A DNA stretch of 63,553 nucleotides, the filler included. It is 5 parts of 5 records of this genome, joined end to end, with 100 filler letters (N's around TTAATTAATTAA, not from the genome) between each part and the next. Parts side by side here need not be neighbours in the genome. Positions count along the whole stretch, not along the records: positions 56,505 to 63,553 come from SRR20825006_3093; 4 more parts are not named here. One strand, given 5' to 3'. Below, in pieces: positions 1 to 63,553 of the stretch (positions within the stretch are counted from its first letter, which is position 1; every line of letters begins with the position of its first letter). The notes beneath the pieces were generated by a model. That model made no database searches. It saw only the letters and a program-made list of their open reading frames with translations, and was not told the DNA's origin. Position numbers and translations under genes: made by a program.

Positions 1-1
1 G

Positions 2-169
2 GACGACATGCCTGCCCATATCAAGGCCGCGCTGACACAGACCTCGCTCTCCATTCCCGTTTCGGCGGGGCGCATGGCGCTCGGCACATGGCAGGGCATA
101 TATTTGTTCGAGCATCGCGACGCCCCGCATACCCGGCGCGTGGTTGCTCATTTCCTCACATCAGGCTGA
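2..169 (+). CDS. yjbQ: YjbQ/UPF0047 family protein (secondary thiamine-phosphate synthase), 3' part only
   Basis: Manual translation from base 2: DDMPAHIKAALTQTSLSIPV...LGTWQGIYLFEHR, the typical YjbQ C-terminal motifs; TGA at 167-169; not in the ORF track. Confidence 0.9.
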   Translation, partial: DDMPAHIKAALTQTSLSIPVSAGRMALGTWQGIYLFEHRDAPHTRRVVAHFLTSG

Positions 170-56375: not shown

Positions 56376-56404
56376 ATGTCAGAGAACACTCTGAAGTTAA
56401 TCGC
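56376..56404 (+). CDS. glnA: Start of glutamine synthetase (truncated)
   Basis: GGAGG RBS, MSENTLKLI; identity inferred from divergence from thiI plus the NtrC/sigma54 promoter. Confidence 0.7.
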
Positions 56405-56504
56405 NNNNNNNNNNNNNNNNNNNNNNNNNNNNNNNNNNNNNNNNNNNNTTAATTAATTAANNNNNNNNNNNNNNNNNNNNNNNNNNNNNNNNNNNNNNNN
56501 NNNN
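56405..56504. other. Artificial contig spacer
   Basis: N44-TTAATTAATTAA-N44; abrupt shift to AT-rich DNA afterwards. Confidence 0.99.
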
Positions 56505-56515
56505 TACCTCTTACT

Positions 56516-56701
56516 ATGAATTACCAACAACCTAATGAAAGGCTTCAAATTATTAATGGCATGTACAAATTAGTTTCAGAAGACTACGTACAAGAATTAC
56601 AACCTGAACCTAAAACTAAAGTTAGACAAGCTTTAAGAAAATCTTCAACAAGAATTAAAAACTCCTTAAGACGACAGCTGGATAAGTGGATGGAATCTTA
56701 A
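56516..56701 (+). CDS. Small hypothetical protein (61 aa)
   Basis: Open frame in AT-rich DNA, basic C-terminal helix; no recognised motif. Confidence 0.5.
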   Translation: MNYQQPNERLQIINGMYKLVSEDYVQELQPEPKTKVRQALRKSSTRIKNSLRRQLDKWMES

Positions 56702-56781
56702 AAACTACTTTAATATGTTAACGTTTCATTAATTGTTTAGGGTAATGCTAATTTCTATCTTTAGCAGATAAAATTATCCAA

Positions 56782-58638
56782 ATGAAAATTCAAAATTACG
56801 TTACCCTTATTTTAGTATGCTTTGCGTGCTTTCAAATTAGCTGCGCACAAGATAGCGCACAACCAGTTTATGATGTTTCTGCACATTACAACAAGCAAGA
56901 GGTAGATATACCTATGCGCGATGGTGTAACACTGCATACCACAATTTATTCTCCAAAGGATACCTCTAAAAAGTATCCAATGATTATGCAACGTACTCCA
57001 TACAGTTCAAGACCTTATGGTGAAGGCCAATTTAAATCTAAAATTGGACCAAACGAATATATGATGAAAGATGGTTACATAGTTGTATACCAAGATGTGC
57101 GTGGTCGTTGGATGAGTGAAGGAGATTATGATAATATGCGTGCTTATATACCTAATAAGAAAAAAGGTCAAGTAGACGAATCAAGTGATACCTATGATAC
57201 GATTGATTGGTTAGTTAAAAATGTAGACAATAATAACGGGAATGTAGGAACTTGGGGAATTTCTTATCCAGGCTTTTATGCTACATATTCATTGTTAGAC
57301 TCGCATCCAGCTTTAAAAGCGGTTTCTCCTCAAGCCTGTATAGGTGATTTCTTTTTTGATGATTTTCATCATAACGGTGCTTATTTATTAAGTTACTGGA
57401 GAGCAACAGCTGTATTCGGATACCAGACAGAACCTACTACAGAGTCTTGGTATGATTTCCCACAACTAGATACCCAAGATCAATATCAGTTCTTTTTAGA
57501 TAACGGTCCACTAAGTAATTTAGATGAGTACTATAAAGAAGATAATGAGTTCTGGACACAGTTAAAAGAACATCCTAATTATGATGAGTTCTGGAAATCT
57601 CGTGGTATCATACAGCACTTAAAAGATATTAAACCAGCTGTAATGACAGTAGGTGGTTTGTTTGATGCAGAAGATCTTTATGGTCCTTATGAAACCTATA
57701 AAAATATTGAAGCCAAGAGTGATAACTTCAACATAATGGTTTTCGGACCTTGGAGTCATGGTGATTGGGCGCGTAACAAAGAACGCCAAGCAATAGGTAA
57801 TGTATATTTTGGAGATAATATTTCAGACTACTACCAAAAAGATTTAGAAACACCATTCTTTGAGCACTTCCTTAAGAATGATGGTAAAGGCGACGTAAAT
57901 TTAAGTGAAGCGAGAATATATGATTCTGGAACTAAAGAATGGAAATCTTATGATTCTTGGCCTCCAGAAAATACTACTAAAAAAACAATGTATTTAGGCA
58001 GCTCGCAAAAGTTAAACAGCTTGCCAGAAGCAACTCAGGAAACTAAGTTTATTAGTGATGTAAATAAGCCAGTACCATATTCTGAAGATATTAAAATGGT
58101 ATTTACACCTAGAAAATATATGACAGATGATCAGCGCTTTGCAGCGCGAAGACCAGATGTCTTGGTATTTGAAACACCAGTAATGACAGAAGATATGACA
58201 CTTGCAGGAGATATTTTAGCTAAGCTACAAGTGGCAACAACAGGTACTGCTGCAGATTGGGTTGTAAAAGTTATAGATGTTTATCCGGCAGATGCTAAGG
58301 ATACAGAAGAAACACAAGACCACCTTAAGATGAGTAATTACCATATGATGGTTAGAAGTGAAGTGTTAAGAGGTAGGTTTAGAAACAGTTTTGAGCAACC
58401 GGAACCGTTTGTGCCAAACCAAAAAACTCCAGTTACTATAAAGCTACAAGATGTACACCATACCATAAAGAAAGGTCATAAACTACAAATACAGGTACAG
58501 AGCACATGGTTCCCTTATATTGACTTAAATCCGCAGACTTACGTAGACAATATTTTTGAGGCAAAAGCTTCAGACTTTAAGACACAAACACATTCTGTTT
58601 TTGGAGATAGTGCAATTGAGTTTTCAATATTAAATTAA
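56782..58638 (+). CDS. CocE/NonD family serine hydrolase (S15/alpha-amino acid ester hydrolase-like)
   Basis: MRDGV.L.T, RTPY, QDVRGR..SEG, GISYPGFY nucleophile motif, GPWSHG, QSTWFP..D.NPQ. Confidence 0.92.
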   Translation: MKIQNYVTLILVCFACFQISCAQDSAQPVYDVSAHYNKQEVDIPMRDGVTLHTTIYSPKDTSKKYPMIMQRTPYSSRPYGEGQFKSKIGPNEYMMKDGYIVVYQDVRGRWMSEGDYDNMRAYIPNKKKGQVDESSDTYDTIDWLVKNVDNNNGNVGTWGISYPGFYATYSLLDSHPALKAVSPQACIGDFFFDDFHHNGAYLLSYWRATAVFGYQTEPTTESWYDFPQLDTQDQYQFFLDNGPLSNLDEYYKEDNEFWTQLKEHPNYDEFWKSRGIIQHLKDIKPAVMTVGGLFDAEDLYGPYETYKNIEAKSDNFNIMVFGPWSHGDWARNKERQAIGNVYFGDNISDYYQKDLETPFFEHFLKNDGKGDVNLSEARIYDSGTKEWKSYDSWPPENTTKKTMYLGSSQKLNSLPEATQETKFISDVNKPVPYSEDIKMVFTPRKYMTDDQRFAARRPDVLVFETPVMTEDMTLAGDILAKLQVATTGTAADWVVKVIDVYPADAKDTEETQDHLKMSNYHMMVRSEVLRGRFRNSFEQPEPFVPNQKTPVTIKLQDVHHTIKKGHKLQIQVQSTWFPYIDLNPQTYVDNIFEAKASDFKTQTHSVFGDSAIEFSILN

Positions 58639-58641
58639 TTT

Positions 58642-60450
58642 ATGAATAAATATATAATAGGCGCAACGCTAGTCGTTGCGCTTTTCTCTTGCAAACAAAA
58701 TTCAGAACCTATTTCTGAAGAAACAATAGCAACAGAAAGTAAAAAGGCAAATGATTTTTTTGAAGCCTCATTTAAAGAAGATGTTTCAATTAGCCCTATG
58801 CTTCAAACACAATTAGGAGTAAAAACTAATTATGGAGAATGGGATGATTTTTCTAACCAAGCAGAAGCAAAAGAACTTGAGAGAGCAAAAAACAGGTTGG
58901 CTTATTTAAATGACAGCCTAAATGTAAACGCTTTAAATAAGGAAACTGCACTTAGCTACACATTATACAAACAAGATTTAGAGCATACTATTGAAGATTA
59001 TGCGTTTAGATTATACAATTATCCTGTTAATCAAATGCACGGTATGCATGCCGAAATTCCTGCATTCCTTATCAATATGCATAGTATAAACTCTGTTGAA
59101 GATGCAGAGGCTTATATTTCTAGGTTAAAAGGTTTAGAAAAAGTATATGCAGACGTTTCTGAAAATTTGAGCATTCGTGAAACTAATGGAATAATGCCTC
59201 CAAAGTTTGTTTTTGAGAAAGTTATAGGAGATAGTAAGAATCTAATTAAAGGAAGACCTTTTGAAAAGAGTAACGAAGTAAGTGCGTTAATGGAAGATTT
59301 TACGACCAAAGTAAATACACTTTCAATACCTAAGGATGAAAAAGAGGACTTATTAAATAAAGCAGAAAAAGCACTTACAGAACAAGTAAGACCAGCTTTT
59401 GAGGGTTTAATTTCTACAATGCAGGACCAACAACAAAGAGCTACAGTTGAAAATGGTGTATGGAAATTCCCTAAAGGAGATCAATTTTATAATTTAGCAC
59501 TTAAAAGAACTACCACTACTAGTCTCACAGCAAATGAAATACATGAGATTGGATTAAATGAAGTTGCTCGTATACACAAGGAAATGGAGCAAATTATGCA
59601 AGATGTAGGTTTTAACGGTACATTGCAGGACTTCTTTAAATTTATGCGTGAAGATGAAAAGTTTTACTATAAAAATACGGTAGAAGATAAGCAAGCTTAT
59701 AAAGATAAGGCTACAGCAATCATCAATACCATGAAAGGTACCTTAGATAAATTGTTTAATACAAAGCCAAAAGCAGAACTCGTAGTAAAGGCAGTGGAGC
59801 CATTTAGAGAAAAAAGTGCAGGTAAAGCCTTTTACCAACAGCCAGCAATAGATGGATCTAGACCTGGCACTTATTATGTTAACCTTTATGATATGAGTGC
59901 TATGCCTACCTACCAAATGGAAGCTTTAGCATACCACGAAGGCATACCTGGTCACCACATGCAAATTGCAATATCTCAAGAACTAGAAAACATACCAGCT
60001 TTTAGAAAGCATAGTTTTTACACAGCTTATGTAGAAGGTTGGGCATTATATTCAGAATATATACCCAAAGAAGTAGGGTATTATAAAGATCCTTATTCAG
60101 ATTTTGGTCGTTTAGCCATGGAATTGTGGCGCTCTTGCCGTTTAGTTGTAGATACGGGTATACACGCTAAGAAATGGACACGTGAAGAAGGTATTGAGTA
60201 TTATAAAAAGAATACACCAAATGCAGAAAGCGACTGTATAAAAATGGTTGAACGTCATATAGTAATGCCTGGCCAAGCAACCGCTTACAAAGTTGGAATG
60301 AATAAAATATTAGAATTAAGGAACTTATCTGAGGAAAAGCTAGGAAGCAATTTTGATATTAAAGAGTTTCATGATATTATACTTAAAGACGGTGCATTAC
60401 CGTTAGATATTCTAACTCAAAAAGTAGAAGCTTGGATAGCCAGCAAATAA
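58642..60450 (+). CDS. DUF885 family lipoprotein (metallopeptidase-like)
   Basis: Lipobox LFSC; HEGIPGHH.Q, EGWALYSE, RLVVDTGIH and PGQA.AYK.G motifs. Confidence 0.92.
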   Translation: MNKYIIGATLVVALFSCKQNSEPISEETIATESKKANDFFEASFKEDVSISPMLQTQLGVKTNYGEWDDFSNQAEAKELERAKNRLAYLNDSLNVNALNKETALSYTLYKQDLEHTIEDYAFRLYNYPVNQMHGMHAEIPAFLINMHSINSVEDAEAYISRLKGLEKVYADVSENLSIRETNGIMPPKFVFEKVIGDSKNLIKGRPFEKSNEVSALMEDFTTKVNTLSIPKDEKEDLLNKAEKALTEQVRPAFEGLISTMQDQQQRATVENGVWKFPKGDQFYNLALKRTTTTSLTANEIHEIGLNEVARIHKEMEQIMQDVGFNGTLQDFFKFMREDEKFYYKNTVEDKQAYKDKATAIINTMKGTLDKLFNTKPKAELVVKAVEPFREKSAGKAFYQQPAIDGSRPGTYYVNLYDMSAMPTYQMEALAYHEGIPGHHMQIAISQELENIPAFRKHSFYTAYVEGWALYSEYIPKEVGYYKDPYSDFGRLAMELWRSCRLVVDTGIHAKKWTREEGIEYYKKNTPNAESDCIKMVERHIVMPGQATAYKVGMNKILELRNLSEEKLGSNFDIKEFHDIILKDGALPLDILTQKVEAWIASK

Positions 60451-60452
60451 AT

Positions 60453-60495
60453 AGCCATACCAATTGTATGGTTCAACCATACATATGATAGGGTT
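60453..60495. promoter_or_regulatory. Array of alternating CCATAC/GTATGG half-sites; candidate response-regulator operator
   Basis: CCATAC(60455)-caatt-GTATGGTT-c-AACCATAC (perfect 17-bp palindrome 60466-60482), then degenerate ATAGGGTT at 60488; 22-bp period. Confidence 0.65.
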
Positions 60496-60502
60496 TAAAA
60501 TG

Positions 60503-60532
60503 TTGGTATGTAACAGTTTGTATATATTTTTG
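60503..60532 (+). promoter_or_regulatory. Bacteroidota sigmaA promoter (-33/-7) for the peptide gene
   Basis: TTG(60503-05)-N19-TATTTTTG(60525-32), matching TTG-N19..21-TAnnTTTG. Confidence 0.7.
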
Positions 60533-60615
60533 TAGTGTAAGATTTAAAATAAGAATCTTATTTAGTTAATTTGATTACAATTTAATACAATATAACTCTA
60601 ACAAATATCATTATT

Positions 60616-60762
60616 ATGAAAAAATTAATTTACACTTTCGCTCTTACAGTATTCGCATTCTCATTCGCAGCTTGTGAAGCAGATGAATTACCACAAGACG
60701 TTGACAACGGTGTAGGAGATCAGGTACAAGTACCTGCAGACAGAGAAGATGAAGGACTATAA
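60616..60762 (+). CDS. 48-aa lipopeptide (below the ORF-track cutoff)
   Basis: MKKLIYTFALTVFAFSFAA-C-EADELPQDVDNGVGDQVQVPADREDEGL; basic n-region, hydrophobic h-region, lipobox FAAC (Cys20), acidic mature part; flanked by a promoter and a terminator. Confidence 0.85.
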   Translation: MKKLIYTFALTVFAFSFAACEADELPQDVDNGVGDQVQVPADREDEGL

Positions 60763-60784
60763 TAGTTTTTACATTTAAAAAAAT

Positions 60785-60819
60785 AAAAAAGCCTTTGAAT
60801 AATTTTCAAAGGCTTTTTT
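60785..60819 (+). terminator. Intrinsic terminator between the peptide gene and the kinase
   Basis: AAAAAAGCCTTTGAA-taatt-TTCAAAGGCTTTTTT. Confidence 0.88.
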
Positions 60820-60847
60820 ATTGGTTTTAGATATATTTGAACTCTGT

Positions 60848-62890
60848 ATGAAATATAAATATTACATATATCTAATTTTATTCTTTTTACTCTCTTGTTC
60901 TGAGGGATTTGATTTTCATGAAAAGAATTTAGCAGTAAATGATAGCCTTAAATTTTATATTGATGAATACAAAAGACAAGATTTAACTGACCAACAGAAA
61001 AACAATATACTGTTAAAAGCTTTTAAATTTGCTGAACAAATAAATTCAGATTCATTAAAAAATAATTACTACAAAAGAATTTCATATCAGTTTTATAAAT
61101 TAGGTGATACTTCCAACTTTTTAAATGTAAACAATAAAGGGGTTGAGCTTTCTGAAAAAATAAATGATTCCACAACGCTAGCAATTTTATTATGGGATGC
61201 TGCAACTTATTATAGAGATAAACAACTCAAAAACAAAGAAGCTTACGAACGTTATTTTAAAGCCAAATCTATATTCGAAGATTTAGGGAATGATTATAAT
61301 GCTGCTAAAATGTTACTTAACATGGCAATCATTCAAACTAATGTAAGGGATTACATAGGTAGTGAGAATACAACGATTACAGCCATAAATAAATTTGAAC
61401 CTTTAGGAAAGCAACAGTATTTATATAGCTGTTATAACAATATTGGTATCATTAATAATGAGTTGGAAGAATATCAAGATGCCTTATACTATCACCGCAA
61501 AGCTTTAAAAACATTAGATAGGTTTGAAAGTGATCCTACTTTAAAGGCTGTGTCTCTTAATAATATTGGTGTTGTTTATAAAAATAAGGGTAGTTATGAT
61601 GATGCAATTACATCATTTAATCAAGCCTTAACAGTTGATAGCTTATTCTATAAAAATACGATTCTTTACTCTGCGCTATTAGATAATATTGCCTTCTCTA
61701 ACTTTAAGAGCGGTAATAATGCAGAGATCCCATACCTTTTTTACAAAGCAAAACAAATAAGAGATAGTATAAAGTTTGATCCTGGTATGATAGAAAGCAG
61801 GTTAAATTTATCTGATTACTTTTTGGGAGAAGGAAATTATGATAAGGCGTTAAGTTATGCCAAGGAAGCAAAAAAACTTTCAGAAGAATCAAACTATACA
61901 GATGATATACTAGCATCCTTACTCAAGTTGTCTAAATTAGATACGCTTAATGCTAGAGCTTATGCAAATAGGTACATAGTTTTATCAGACAGTTTGCAAG
62001 CTCAAGAACGTTTAATGCAAAATAAATTTGCTAGAATTAGATATGAGACAGATGAGTATATAGATAAGAACAATGCGTTAAGCGAGCGAGTTAGAAATAT
62101 TACTATAAGCTTATTAATTGCATTAGTGGTTTTTGGGTTACTATTCGTTATAAAGAGTCAATTATCTAAAAACAATCAACTTAAGTTAGAACGTGAACAA
62201 CAGTTAGCAAATGAGCAGATTTATAATTTAATGATAGATCAGCAAAATAAAATTTCTGAAGGAAGAAAACGTGAAAAACAGAGAATTTCTAAAGAACTCC
62301 ATGATGGTGTTTTAGGAAGTTTATTTGGTACTCGTTTAAGCTTAGGGAGTTTAAATACAAAGCATGATGAAAGTGCAATTAATAACAGGCAAAACTATAT
62401 AGATAGGTTAAAGGAAATAGAAGAGGAGATACGAAGTATTTCTCATAACCTACAAAGTAAGGTGTTAAAAGAGGAACAGGTTTTTACTTCTTTAATTGAA
62501 GAGCTTTTGGAAATACAATCAAAAGCCGGAAACTTTAATTATGCTATACAAACTCAAACCGATTTGGATTGGGATATGATAGATGGTAAGGTTAAAATTA
62601 ACATTTACAGAATACTACAGGAAGCCATACAGAACATAAATAAATATGCAGATGCTACCGAAGTTTTGCTTACCTTTAATGCCAATCAAAATCACATTAA
62701 AGTTACTATTGAGGATGATGGTGTAGGTTTTAATGTTCAGAAAAAATCACAAGGAATTGGTTTGTCAAATATGACATCAAGAGTTAAGGATTTGCAGGGA
62801 ACAATAAAAATCACTTCAGAACTTTCTAAAGGAACTTTAATAGAGGTTACAGTCCCTAAAACCAATTATTTTGACAAAAAAACGGCTTAA
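60848..62890 (+). CDS. TPR-repeat sensor histidine kinase (HisKA_3 type)
   Basis: N-terminal signal ending LLSC, several TPRs (YNNIG...Y..AL.Y..KAL; LNNIG.VY...G.Y..A...F.QAL), one TM, RISKELHDG H-box, YRILQEA..N..KYA, DDGVGF, GIGL. Confidence 0.93.
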   Translation: MKYKYYIYLILFFLLSCSEGFDFHEKNLAVNDSLKFYIDEYKRQDLTDQQKNNILLKAFKFAEQINSDSLKNNYYKRISYQFYKLGDTSNFLNVNNKGVELSEKINDSTTLAILLWDAATYYRDKQLKNKEAYERYFKAKSIFEDLGNDYNAAKMLLNMAIIQTNVRDYIGSENTTITAINKFEPLGKQQYLYSCYNNIGIINNELEEYQDALYYHRKALKTLDRFESDPTLKAVSLNNIGVVYKNKGSYDDAITSFNQALTVDSLFYKNTILYSALLDNIAFSNFKSGNNAEIPYLFYKAKQIRDSIKFDPGMIESRLNLSDYFLGEGNYDKALSYAKEAKKLSEESNYTDDILASLLKLSKLDTLNARAYANRYIVLSDSLQAQERLMQNKFARIRYETDEYIDKNNALSERVRNITISLLIALVVFGLLFVIKSQLSKNNQLKLEREQQLANEQIYNLMIDQQNKISEGRKREKQRISKELHDGVLGSLFGTRLSLGSLNTKHDESAINNRQNYIDRLKEIEEEIRSISHNLQSKVLKEEQVFTSLIEELLEIQSKAGNFNYAIQTQTDLDWDMIDGKVKINIYRILQEAIQNINKYADATEVLLTFNANQNHIKVTIEDDGVGFNVQKKSQGIGLSNMTSRVKDLQGTIKITSELSKGTLIEVTVPKTNYFDKKTA

Positions 62891-63545
62891 ACTCCTTATT
62901 GTAGATGATCATCCTATGATTATCGAGGGCTATAAGAATGCTCTCCAAGATATGTCATCAGATGATTATGAACTTATCATAGAATCTGCTCAAGATTGTG
63001 ATGAAGGTATGGAGAAGATTCAAAACTCTACAACCGGCACACCATACGATATTATATTTTTAGATATACAGCTGCCTCCATCTAAAGATGGCAGAATATT
63101 ATCTGGCGAAGATTTAGGATTACGAGCAAACAGGTTATCACCGTCTTCTAAGCTTGTGTTCTTAACTATGTTTAATGATAATTACCGTATTCATAGTATT
63201 CTTAAAAATGTGAACCCAGACGGCTTCTTAGTAAAGAGTGATGTAAACTCATCTGAGTTGGTAAAGGCTTTTGATACAATAAATAACGATCCTCCATATT
63301 ATAGTAAATCTGTTAAGCAGTTTATAAGAAATGACATGACAAATAGAAATGTTATAGATGAGCTGGATAGAAAAATATTATTTCATCTTTCTAAAGGTGT
63401 TCAAACAAAAGACTTACCAGAATATGTTTCACTTTCTATTAATGCAATAGAAAAGCGAAAGAAATCTTTACGAAAACTGTTTGATATTAGCACAAGAAAC
63501 GATGTTTCTCTTATCCAAAAAGCTAAAGAACAGGGTTTTCTTTAA
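62871..63545 (+). CDS. NarL/LuxR-type response regulator
   Basis: IVDDHP, FLDI (phospho-Asp), FLVK, C-terminal HTH (LSKG.QTK.....SLS..AIEKRK); overlaps the kinase stop. Confidence 0.92.
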   Translation: MTKKRLKLLIVDDHPMIIEGYKNALQDMSSDDYELIIESAQDCDEGMEKIQNSTTGTPYDIIFLDIQLPPSKDGRILSGEDLGLRANRLSPSSKLVFLTMFNDNYRIHSILKNVNPDGFLVKSDVNSSELVKAFDTINNDPPYYSKSVKQFIRNDMTNRNVIDELDRKILFHLSKGVQTKDLPEYVSLSINAIEKRKKSLRKLFDISTRNDVSLIQKAKEQGFL

Positions 63546-63553
63546 AATTTTAA

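Follow-up and report, generated by a model that had tools for sequence, protein, structure and literature searches.

Peptide pheromones are textbook knowledge for Gram-positive bacteria. In the Agr and ComCDE systems, the peptide gene lies beside the gene for a multi-pass membrane kinase with a LytTR regulator, and dedicated AgrB or ComAB proteins carry out processing and export. Exported proteins of the same cell, i.e. CpxP, MgrB and RcsF, modulate sensor kinases in the periplasm, with CpxP and MgrB acting as accessory proteins of their kinases. For the RRNPP systems (Rap-Phr, NprR-NprX, PlcR-PapR), the criteria include a propeptide of 10-100 residues adjoining the receptor gene and an intracellular receptor of 250-500 residues (PMC10075063). 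Among the tetratricopeptide repeat (TPR) sensor kinases of Bacteroidota, even the best-studied member, FimS of Porphyromonas gingivalis, is described as having no known signal; a polypeptide ligand has been suggested for it, and Asn residues are critical (PMC11053733). Here, we describe a candidate peptide-signalling cassette of a marine flavobacterium in a joined stretch of 63,553 nucleotides (the window), of which only positions 56507-63553 are flavobacterial and belong to a contig of low guanine-cytosine (GC) content. The cassette comprises a gene for a 48-residue precursor, a gene for a TPR sensor kinase and a gene for a NarL-like response regulator. Our data make it probable that the C-terminal core of the precursor is the cognate ligand of the kinase, based on the linkage of the two genes, the tandem repeats of the core, a model of the complex and co-variation specific to the groove of the kinase.

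The cassette resembles RRNPP systems in the logic of its ligand and Agr/Com systems in its wiring, and it falls outside the definitions of both. As in RRNPP systems, a small propeptide, with a predicted Sec signal, adjoins a TPR receptor and has a C-terminal core that is subject to intragenic duplication; the TPR fold matches structures of Rap and NprR, and the propeptide (48 residues, with its gene ending 85 nt before the kinase start) is within the RRNPP range for size and adjacency. Unlike in RRNPP systems, the receptor is a 680-residue membrane histidine kinase with extracytoplasmic TPRs in a two-membrane phylum and is, thus, outside the size range and not intracellular, the precursors are mostly lipoproteins with cores of ~10-16 residues, and the peptide gene is upstream of the receptor gene. 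Features shared with Agr and ComCDE are a peptide gene that neighbours the genes for a membrane kinase and a regulator, likely autoinduction and a LytTR gene that is often adjacent. However, the sensing part is a soluble TPR superhelix, carried by a HisKA_3 kinase with a single transmembrane helix, the partner is NarL-like, the acceptor Asp is missing from most of the adjacent LytTR proteins, and there is no AgrB- or ComAB-like gene, as only the kinase, the regulator and the LytTR gene recur in 20 neighbourhoods. FimS is also a Bacteroidota kinase with periplasmic TPRs, and the query kinase matches the FimS profile over the TPR part (E 1.5e-10) but scores 40 bits against a family cut-off of 600 bits (NF053520). 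Among the best 25 hits to this profile, all of which are below the cut-off and do not include FimS itself, an upstream peptide gene was found in 0/25. In the case of PorA-PorY, a sensor kinase is similarly modulated, on its periplasmic side, by a protein that the same cell exports (PMC12152298). By contrast, PorA, CpxP, MgrB and RcsF are folded or membrane proteins, while the partner here is an unstructured, hypervariable and sometimes repeated core. We found no published description of the cassette in the full-text literature, the coverage of which excludes subscription journals and supplements.

Kinase homologs were searched for in 201 Flavobacteriaceae genomes (E <= 1e-60, with only five candidates scored per genome) and were matched in 141 of these, giving 171 matches among the scored candidates. 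The locus set consisted of 108 regions round kinase matches together with loci from two further genomes; 113 kinase open reading frames (ORFs) were kept, while seven were dropped (four startless, three at a locus edge). Signal peptides were called by a hydropathy/lipobox filter, and 234 genes from 20 random 20-kb regions served as linkage controls. A locus search by sequence words recovered just two loci. The earlier note on this DNA had made enrichment of small lipopeptide ORFs upstream of homologous kinases a test of its idea, and such enrichment is what we observe: a small signal-peptide ORF ends upstream of 103/113 homologous TPR-HisKA_3 kinases and upstream of 23/234 control genes. If only gaps of at least 250 nt are considered, the numbers are 103/108 and 16/78, respectively. 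One of the 103 linked ORFs (L008) is an ordinary 130-residue protein; conversely, two kinases missed by the script (L056 and L063) have clear precursors by eye, and the remaining misses are mostly in tandem kinase arrays. Among held-out kinases of the same clade from a later phylum sample, the script found a peptide gene in 14/15 and the fifteenth was found by eye. More distant TPR-HisKA_3 kinases have a peptide gene in only 4/34 cases, and these form a second group (L011, L185, L186, L187) with similar lipopeptide genes, three of which have proline-rich tails. In genome G105, in which we performed the genome-wide tests and whose kinase is 100% identical to the query kinase, the other two HisKA_3 kinases have no peptide gene. 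In three loci (L120, L066 and L131), two to five TPR kinases are arrayed in tandem, and peptide genes are lacking between them; a peptide gene is ahead of the first array kinase in L066 and L131, while none was found in L120. It is possible that such arrays listen to several signals.

The precursors have a median length of 53 residues and a median distance from stop codon to kinase gene of 99.5 nt. Lipoprotein-type precursors account for 70/102; because the other 32 have no lipid cysteine, the lipid is dispensable. At least two acidic residues at positions +2 to +9 are present in 69/70 lipoprotein-type precursors, and at least two D/E at +2 to +6 in 34/70. The Bacteroidota lipoprotein export signal (LES) is given in PMC5080379 as C-X-K-(D/E)2, Q-A-(D/E)2 or SDDFE/SDDDD-like after Cys+1. 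The strict LES motif is present in 1/70 precursors, and in the query the Cys is followed by EADEL, i.e. three acidic residues and no K, Q or S. At the cut-offs of Pfam and NCBIfam, the query peptide matches no family, while 38 members of its own family give scattered weak matches; its match to NF050142 (PG1828 family lipoprotein) is confined to the signal-peptide region and reaches 20.9 bits against a cut-off of 50 bits. Named homologs of the peptide are hypothetical proteins, save for one automatic LpoB label, and the ESM Atlas returned hypothetical-protein clusters only. The motifs TTAATCCATTTT and TTCCCTCA are repeated upstream of the peptide genes in approximately one third of the loci (e.g. 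L071, L089, L119).

The working part of the precursor is the C-terminal core, residues 33-48 in the query. The earlier note had suggested that the 29-residue mature peptide, or a fragment of it, is the cognate ligand; this idea is computationally well supported for the core as the fragment, and not for the whole 29-mer. In 50/83 acidic members, a T[GDE][GDEN] motif is found before a variable tail (24.4 in shuffled sequences, with a maximum of 39), and the query aligns with VGD at this position. Motif and tail are repeated two to six times in 14 precursors, seven of the 102 being detected by script and seven more by eye (L010, L056, L057, L162, L163, L165, L167), and the repeated units are unrelated between lineages. 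The same intragenic core duplication is reported for Bacillus Phr genes and fungal pheromone genes (PMC5199041). A subgroup of cores carries CxxC (L088 with six repeats, L044, L047, L058, L076 and L032), which suggests a disulfide or a metal-bound ligand.

The structure model of the kinase has a mean predicted local distance difference test (pLDDT) score of 89.7 and is all-helical over residues 21-400, and the modelled TPR superhelix continues into one long membrane-crossing helix. The closest solved folds to the sensor domain are LGN-peptide complexes and the TPRs of Rap and NprR, and RapF is matched by sequence as well as by fold. The groove of the kinase contains an Asn ladder (N158/N197/N239/N280); conservation in 102 homologs is 90 for N197, 100 for N239 and 91 for N280. 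A complex model of kinase residues 24-412 and peptide residues 19-48, built without alignments, scored 0.86 in three runs, with a contact agreement of at least 63% and a partner pLDDT of at least 59, while the best of three controls scored 0.02. The score mark is reached by 51/78 solved complexes and by 2/108 mismatched pairs in a calibration set that holds no peptides. All modelled contacts are within the core (residues 33-43 and 45-48) and involve N158, N197, N239, N280 and K154; in other words, they are limited to the part of the precursor already defined independently by the tandem repeats. The outer groove of the kinase very probably binds the core of the peptide.

Peptide class follows the sensor tree (a quick-method tree) with 19 changes versus 62.4 after shuffling, which shared descent alone explains. 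The last 16 residues of the precursor, however, correlate with sensor domain similarity (rho 0.37) and not with kinase domain similarity (0.03), while for the signal peptide it is the kinase domain that correlates (0.51). The partial correlation of core and sensor is 0.34 (permutation p 0.002) and amounts to 0.20 when the two large clades are left out. The single complex model of the query places 41 columns in the groove, and their charge opposes that of the core (rho -0.46); outside the large clades (63 rows), the values are -0.40 for the groove columns and -0.02 for the other columns. In tree contrasts, core and groove charge have r -0.49 with opposite signs in 65/92, and 0/2000 random charged-column sets were as low. 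Co-variation of the signal peptide at the groove columns (0.31) is no better than at random columns (mean 0.33). Over the whole domain, charge complementarity derives mostly from one clade and is not significant when clades B and C are removed (rho -0.15).

All features of the query locus named in the earlier note were located where it had placed them (Table 1), including the 48-residue gene with its promoter, upstream operator array and terminator. The promoter was called with the Bacteroidota -33/-7 consensus, and its start site is predicted. The peptide gene is indeed unannotated in the window, but a 98% identical NCBI record exists as 'hypothetical protein [Croceibacter]'. The ORF encodes a signal peptide with a lipobox (FAA-C20), and the predicted mature part is acidic and has 29 residues. 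The kinase directly after the peptide gene has a TPR extracytoplasmic part, as the note had said and as Pfam domains and the all-helical model agree, and is overlapped by the regulator gene. Its most likely start is ATG 60848, and it consists of a lipobox-like N-terminus, the TPR superhelix (~21-400), a single transmembrane helix (~418-435), HisKA_3 with the invariant H485, and HATPase_c. The N-terminus (60848-60898) has the lipobox-like LLSC, and 40/113 homologs have a similar feature according to the hydropathy/lipobox filter; together with the transmembrane helix, such a start may anchor the sensor domain at both ends. In the regulator, Pfam finds the receiver domain only, and the NarL-like profile matches are under the cut-off. 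Because the kinase gene has a -7 box of its own, peptide and kinase genes are distinct transcription units. A hairpin (z < -2) is present in 89/100 homologous peptide-kinase gaps and TAnnTTTG occurs no more than 70 nt from the start of the kinase in 48/102 homologs versus 7.3 after shuffling; the housekeeping -7 box is not enriched ahead of the peptide genes (12/102 versus 9.2 shuffled).

Table 1. Features of the cassette in the window and palindrome sites in genome G105.
Feature	Position	Strand	Description
Operator array	60455-60493	+	Half-sites CCATA 60455-59, TATGG 60467-71, CCATA 60477-81, TAGGG 60489-93
Peptide-gene promoter, Bacteroidota -33 (TTG) / -7 (TATTTTTG)	60503-60532	+	TTG-N19-TAnnTTTG read from sequence
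Peptide precursor gene	60616-60762	+	48 residues: signal peptide 1-19, Cys20 (lipobox), acidic linker, C-terminal core
Core, putative ligand	60712-60759	+	Precursor residues 33-48; aligns with [T/V]G[D/E/G] motif and tail tandemly repeated in relatives
Hairpin, intrinsic terminator-like	60777-60827	+	23-bp; separates peptide gene from kinase gene
-7 box of the kinase's own promoter	60832-60839	+	TAnnTTTG
Sensor kinase gene	60848-62890	+	680 residues; TPR, HisKA_3, HATPase_c
Response regulator gene, NarL-like	62871-63545	+	224 residues; 20-nt overlap with kinase gene
G105 intergenic palindrome sites 1-2			At cassette: ahead of peptide gene; after regulator gene
G105 palindrome site			Before 1154-residue M4 (thermolysin-family) metalloprotease with type IX secretion system (T9SS) tail
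G105 palindrome site			Before 378-residue T9SS cargo
G105 palindrome site			Before DUF7507/DUF11 repeat protein, >3892 residues
G105 palindrome site			Before operon led by Pfam-less secreted protein, then T9SS cargo
G105 palindrome site			Before operon led by Pfam-less secreted protein, then Met-zincin and PhoD cargo
G105 palindrome site			In gap beside RNase R-like gene (named by our own reading)

A run of N's at 56400-56510 divides the flavobacterial contig from an unrelated, high-GC, proteobacteria-like contig. The DUF885 and S15 hydrolase genes upstream were rejected as parts of the system, being neighbours in just 1/20 loci, and an Rfam search of the contig gave no match above threshold. 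Marine metatranscriptome contigs from three of four RNA runs span the peptide gene, and two such RNA-library contigs stop at 60782 and 60790 and resume at 60871 and 60846; because contigs cannot demonstrate transcription, they were not counted as evidence of it.

The four alternating half-sites of the operator array are spaced 7-5-7, and the array is a putative binding site of the regulator of the cassette. At the query peptide promoter, the -7 box lies at 58 and 36 nt, the 58 nt being counted from the central operator half-site. The perfect palindrome TATGGNTNANCCATA occurs at nine sites in G105, eight of which are intergenic, compared to one for the reversed-pattern control and 0.35 expected; there, a second copy of the operator is located 24 nt beyond the stop codon of the regulator gene, outside the window. 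TAnGG-N5-CCnTA or CCnTA-N7-TAnGG is found in the 200 nt that follow the regulator gene in 71/101 homologs versus 18/192 control genes, counts that do not derive from a pre-set pattern since the patterns were picked after the data had been seen and ten variants were tried before two were used. A -7 box follows the post-regulator operator at 37 nt in 45 loci and at 59 nt in 19, and this fixed spacing fits the geometry of an activator. Direct alignment of the DNA upstream of the peptide gene with that downstream of the regulator gene gave a common element in only 5/101 loci. In G105, the regulator gene is followed by a 520-nt gap in which a stretch downstream of the second operator copy (L202:11170-11320) folds strongly (z -5.0); this stretch has no Rfam match and is a candidate for a regulated small RNA. 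In 45 loci from clades B and C, the operator is followed by another conserved element, which includes a CCCTCA stretch similar to the motifs upstream of the peptide genes. A LytTR-domain gene precedes the peptide gene in 14/20 neighbourhoods but not in the query locus. The LytTR proteins (e.g. L203:7065-7742, L206:11334-12065) mostly have Asn/Glu at the phospho-acceptor position (12 read by eye), so that the adjacent LytTR protein is likely a pseudo-receiver and a fourth component.

In the model that we favor, the precursor would leave the cytoplasm via Sec and would receive a lipid on Cys20, as its lipobox suggests. The acidic linker would keep the precursor on the membrane and probably route it outward, with a loose match to the export signal, and proteolysis would release a core of ~12-16 residues, as the tandem repeats imply. 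The core is predicted, with support from co-variation, to bind in an extended form in the Asn-lined groove of the periplasmic TPR superhelix. The long helix that runs from the last TPR through the membrane would then switch the HisKA_3 kinase and, following established two-component logic, the kinase would phosphorylate the regulator. The regulator would bind TAnGG-N5-CCnTA palindromes set at a constant distance from -7 boxes and activate transcription of its targets, which in this genome would be the peptide gene itself, secreted proteases and surface proteins. Because the peptide gene would be among the targets of its own system, the result would be an autoinduction loop. While we hold the pairing of core and kinase to be probable, we give the full model, in which the core is a released activating signal shared between cells, an even chance.

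Several observations weigh against this model. Across 20 neighbourhoods, each of 20 kb, we found no conserved gene for an exporter, a peptidase or an importer. Because the receptor is periplasmic, the first kinase that the precursor encounters is that of the producing cell, and a core arriving from outside (~1.8 kDa) would require an import route. The strict export signal in a single lipoprotein member and the precursors without lipid cysteine point in the same direction. Binding and activity of the core are predictions, and the pass of the complex model may mirror likeness because similar complexes are already solved: the modelling tool may have recognised the resemblance to LGN and Rap complexes with peptides, and the mark is also reached by 7/44 blind neighbour pairs and by close cousins. 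The co-variation of peptide and TPRs sought by the earlier note is present in the partial correlation and the groove charge; it is lacking inside the 31-member clade A+E (partial -0.06), and a strict binary independent-pairs test has the same direction (2.9 versus 0.5 of 13 pairs) and is not significant (median p 0.375). Feedback of the regulator on the peptide promoter, also proposed in the note, is supported by the operator in this genome, but the operator motif is before only 17/102 peptide genes (shuffled mean 8.1, maximum 11) and, hence, operator-based feedback is a minority trait; in held-out loci, the operator follows the regulator in only 4/13.

In a rival explanation, the core never leaves the cell, and the tethered or soluble precursor binds in the periplasm as a built-in inhibitor or activator of its own kinase, which would then report lipoprotein traffic, periplasmic proteolysis or an outer-membrane leak. 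The lack of conserved export, processing and import genes nearby fits this explanation, as do the precursors without lipid cysteine, which should remain periplasmic, and the rarity of the strict export signal. PorA provides a precedent, since it activates PorY via periplasmic binding (PMC12152298), and the evidence for binding and co-variation fits equally well. However, the cores are hypervariable and occur in up to six tandem copies, which is the pattern of diffusible pheromones, the acidic positions +2 to +9 in nearly all lipoprotein members loosely resemble surface-export signals (PMC5080379), and the candidate regulon consists of secreted goods. Because of the hypervariable, amplified cores and the secreted targets, we prefer the shared signal and regard modulation within the cell as rather unlikely.

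Both explanations presuppose that the core binds the kinase. Alternatively, the peptide could be a co-inherited output, i.e. a small lipoprotein with a bacteriocin-like, structural or chaperone-like role and no binding to the kinase. In this case, it would make sense that the peptide gene is a separate transcription unit with a terminator and, in this genome, an operator upstream, and descent alone would let peptide class track the kinase tree. Against this, co-variation is confined to core and groove columns and spares the signal peptide; moreover, no modification, immunity or transport genes were found in the 20 neighbourhoods, and the query peptide belongs to no family above cut-off. We therefore consider an output of this kind quite improbable. 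It is slightly more improbable still that the linkage is real while the operator is owned by another regulator, e.g. the LytTR neighbour, in which case the regulon and the feedback would be wrong. The frequent LytTR gene before the peptide gene speaks for such an owner, and binding of the operator by the cassette's regulator is itself a prediction; however, the palindrome is directly after the regulator gene with a set spacing to the -7 box and is present in the query locus, which has no LytTR gene.

If the shared-signal model is correct, the cassette would be an example, from a Gram-negative phylum, of a peptide pheromone system that has its own receptor architecture. For the TPR sensor kinases of Bacteroidota, it supplies a candidate ligand, binding groove, operator and targets, and the more than 100 natural peptide-groove pairs offer a specificity code. 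We speculate, with somewhat less than even confidence, that Flavobacteriaceae may use a family-wide peptide language for quorum sensing or kin recognition, in which lipoprotein or repeat-polyprotein precursors deliver lineage-specific cores to periplasmic TPR kinases that activate T9SS exoenzymes, adhesins and a small RNA. Flavobacteriaceae are major degraders of marine algal matter and, therefore, a peptide switch on secreted proteases and adhesins would bear on the colonisation of particles.

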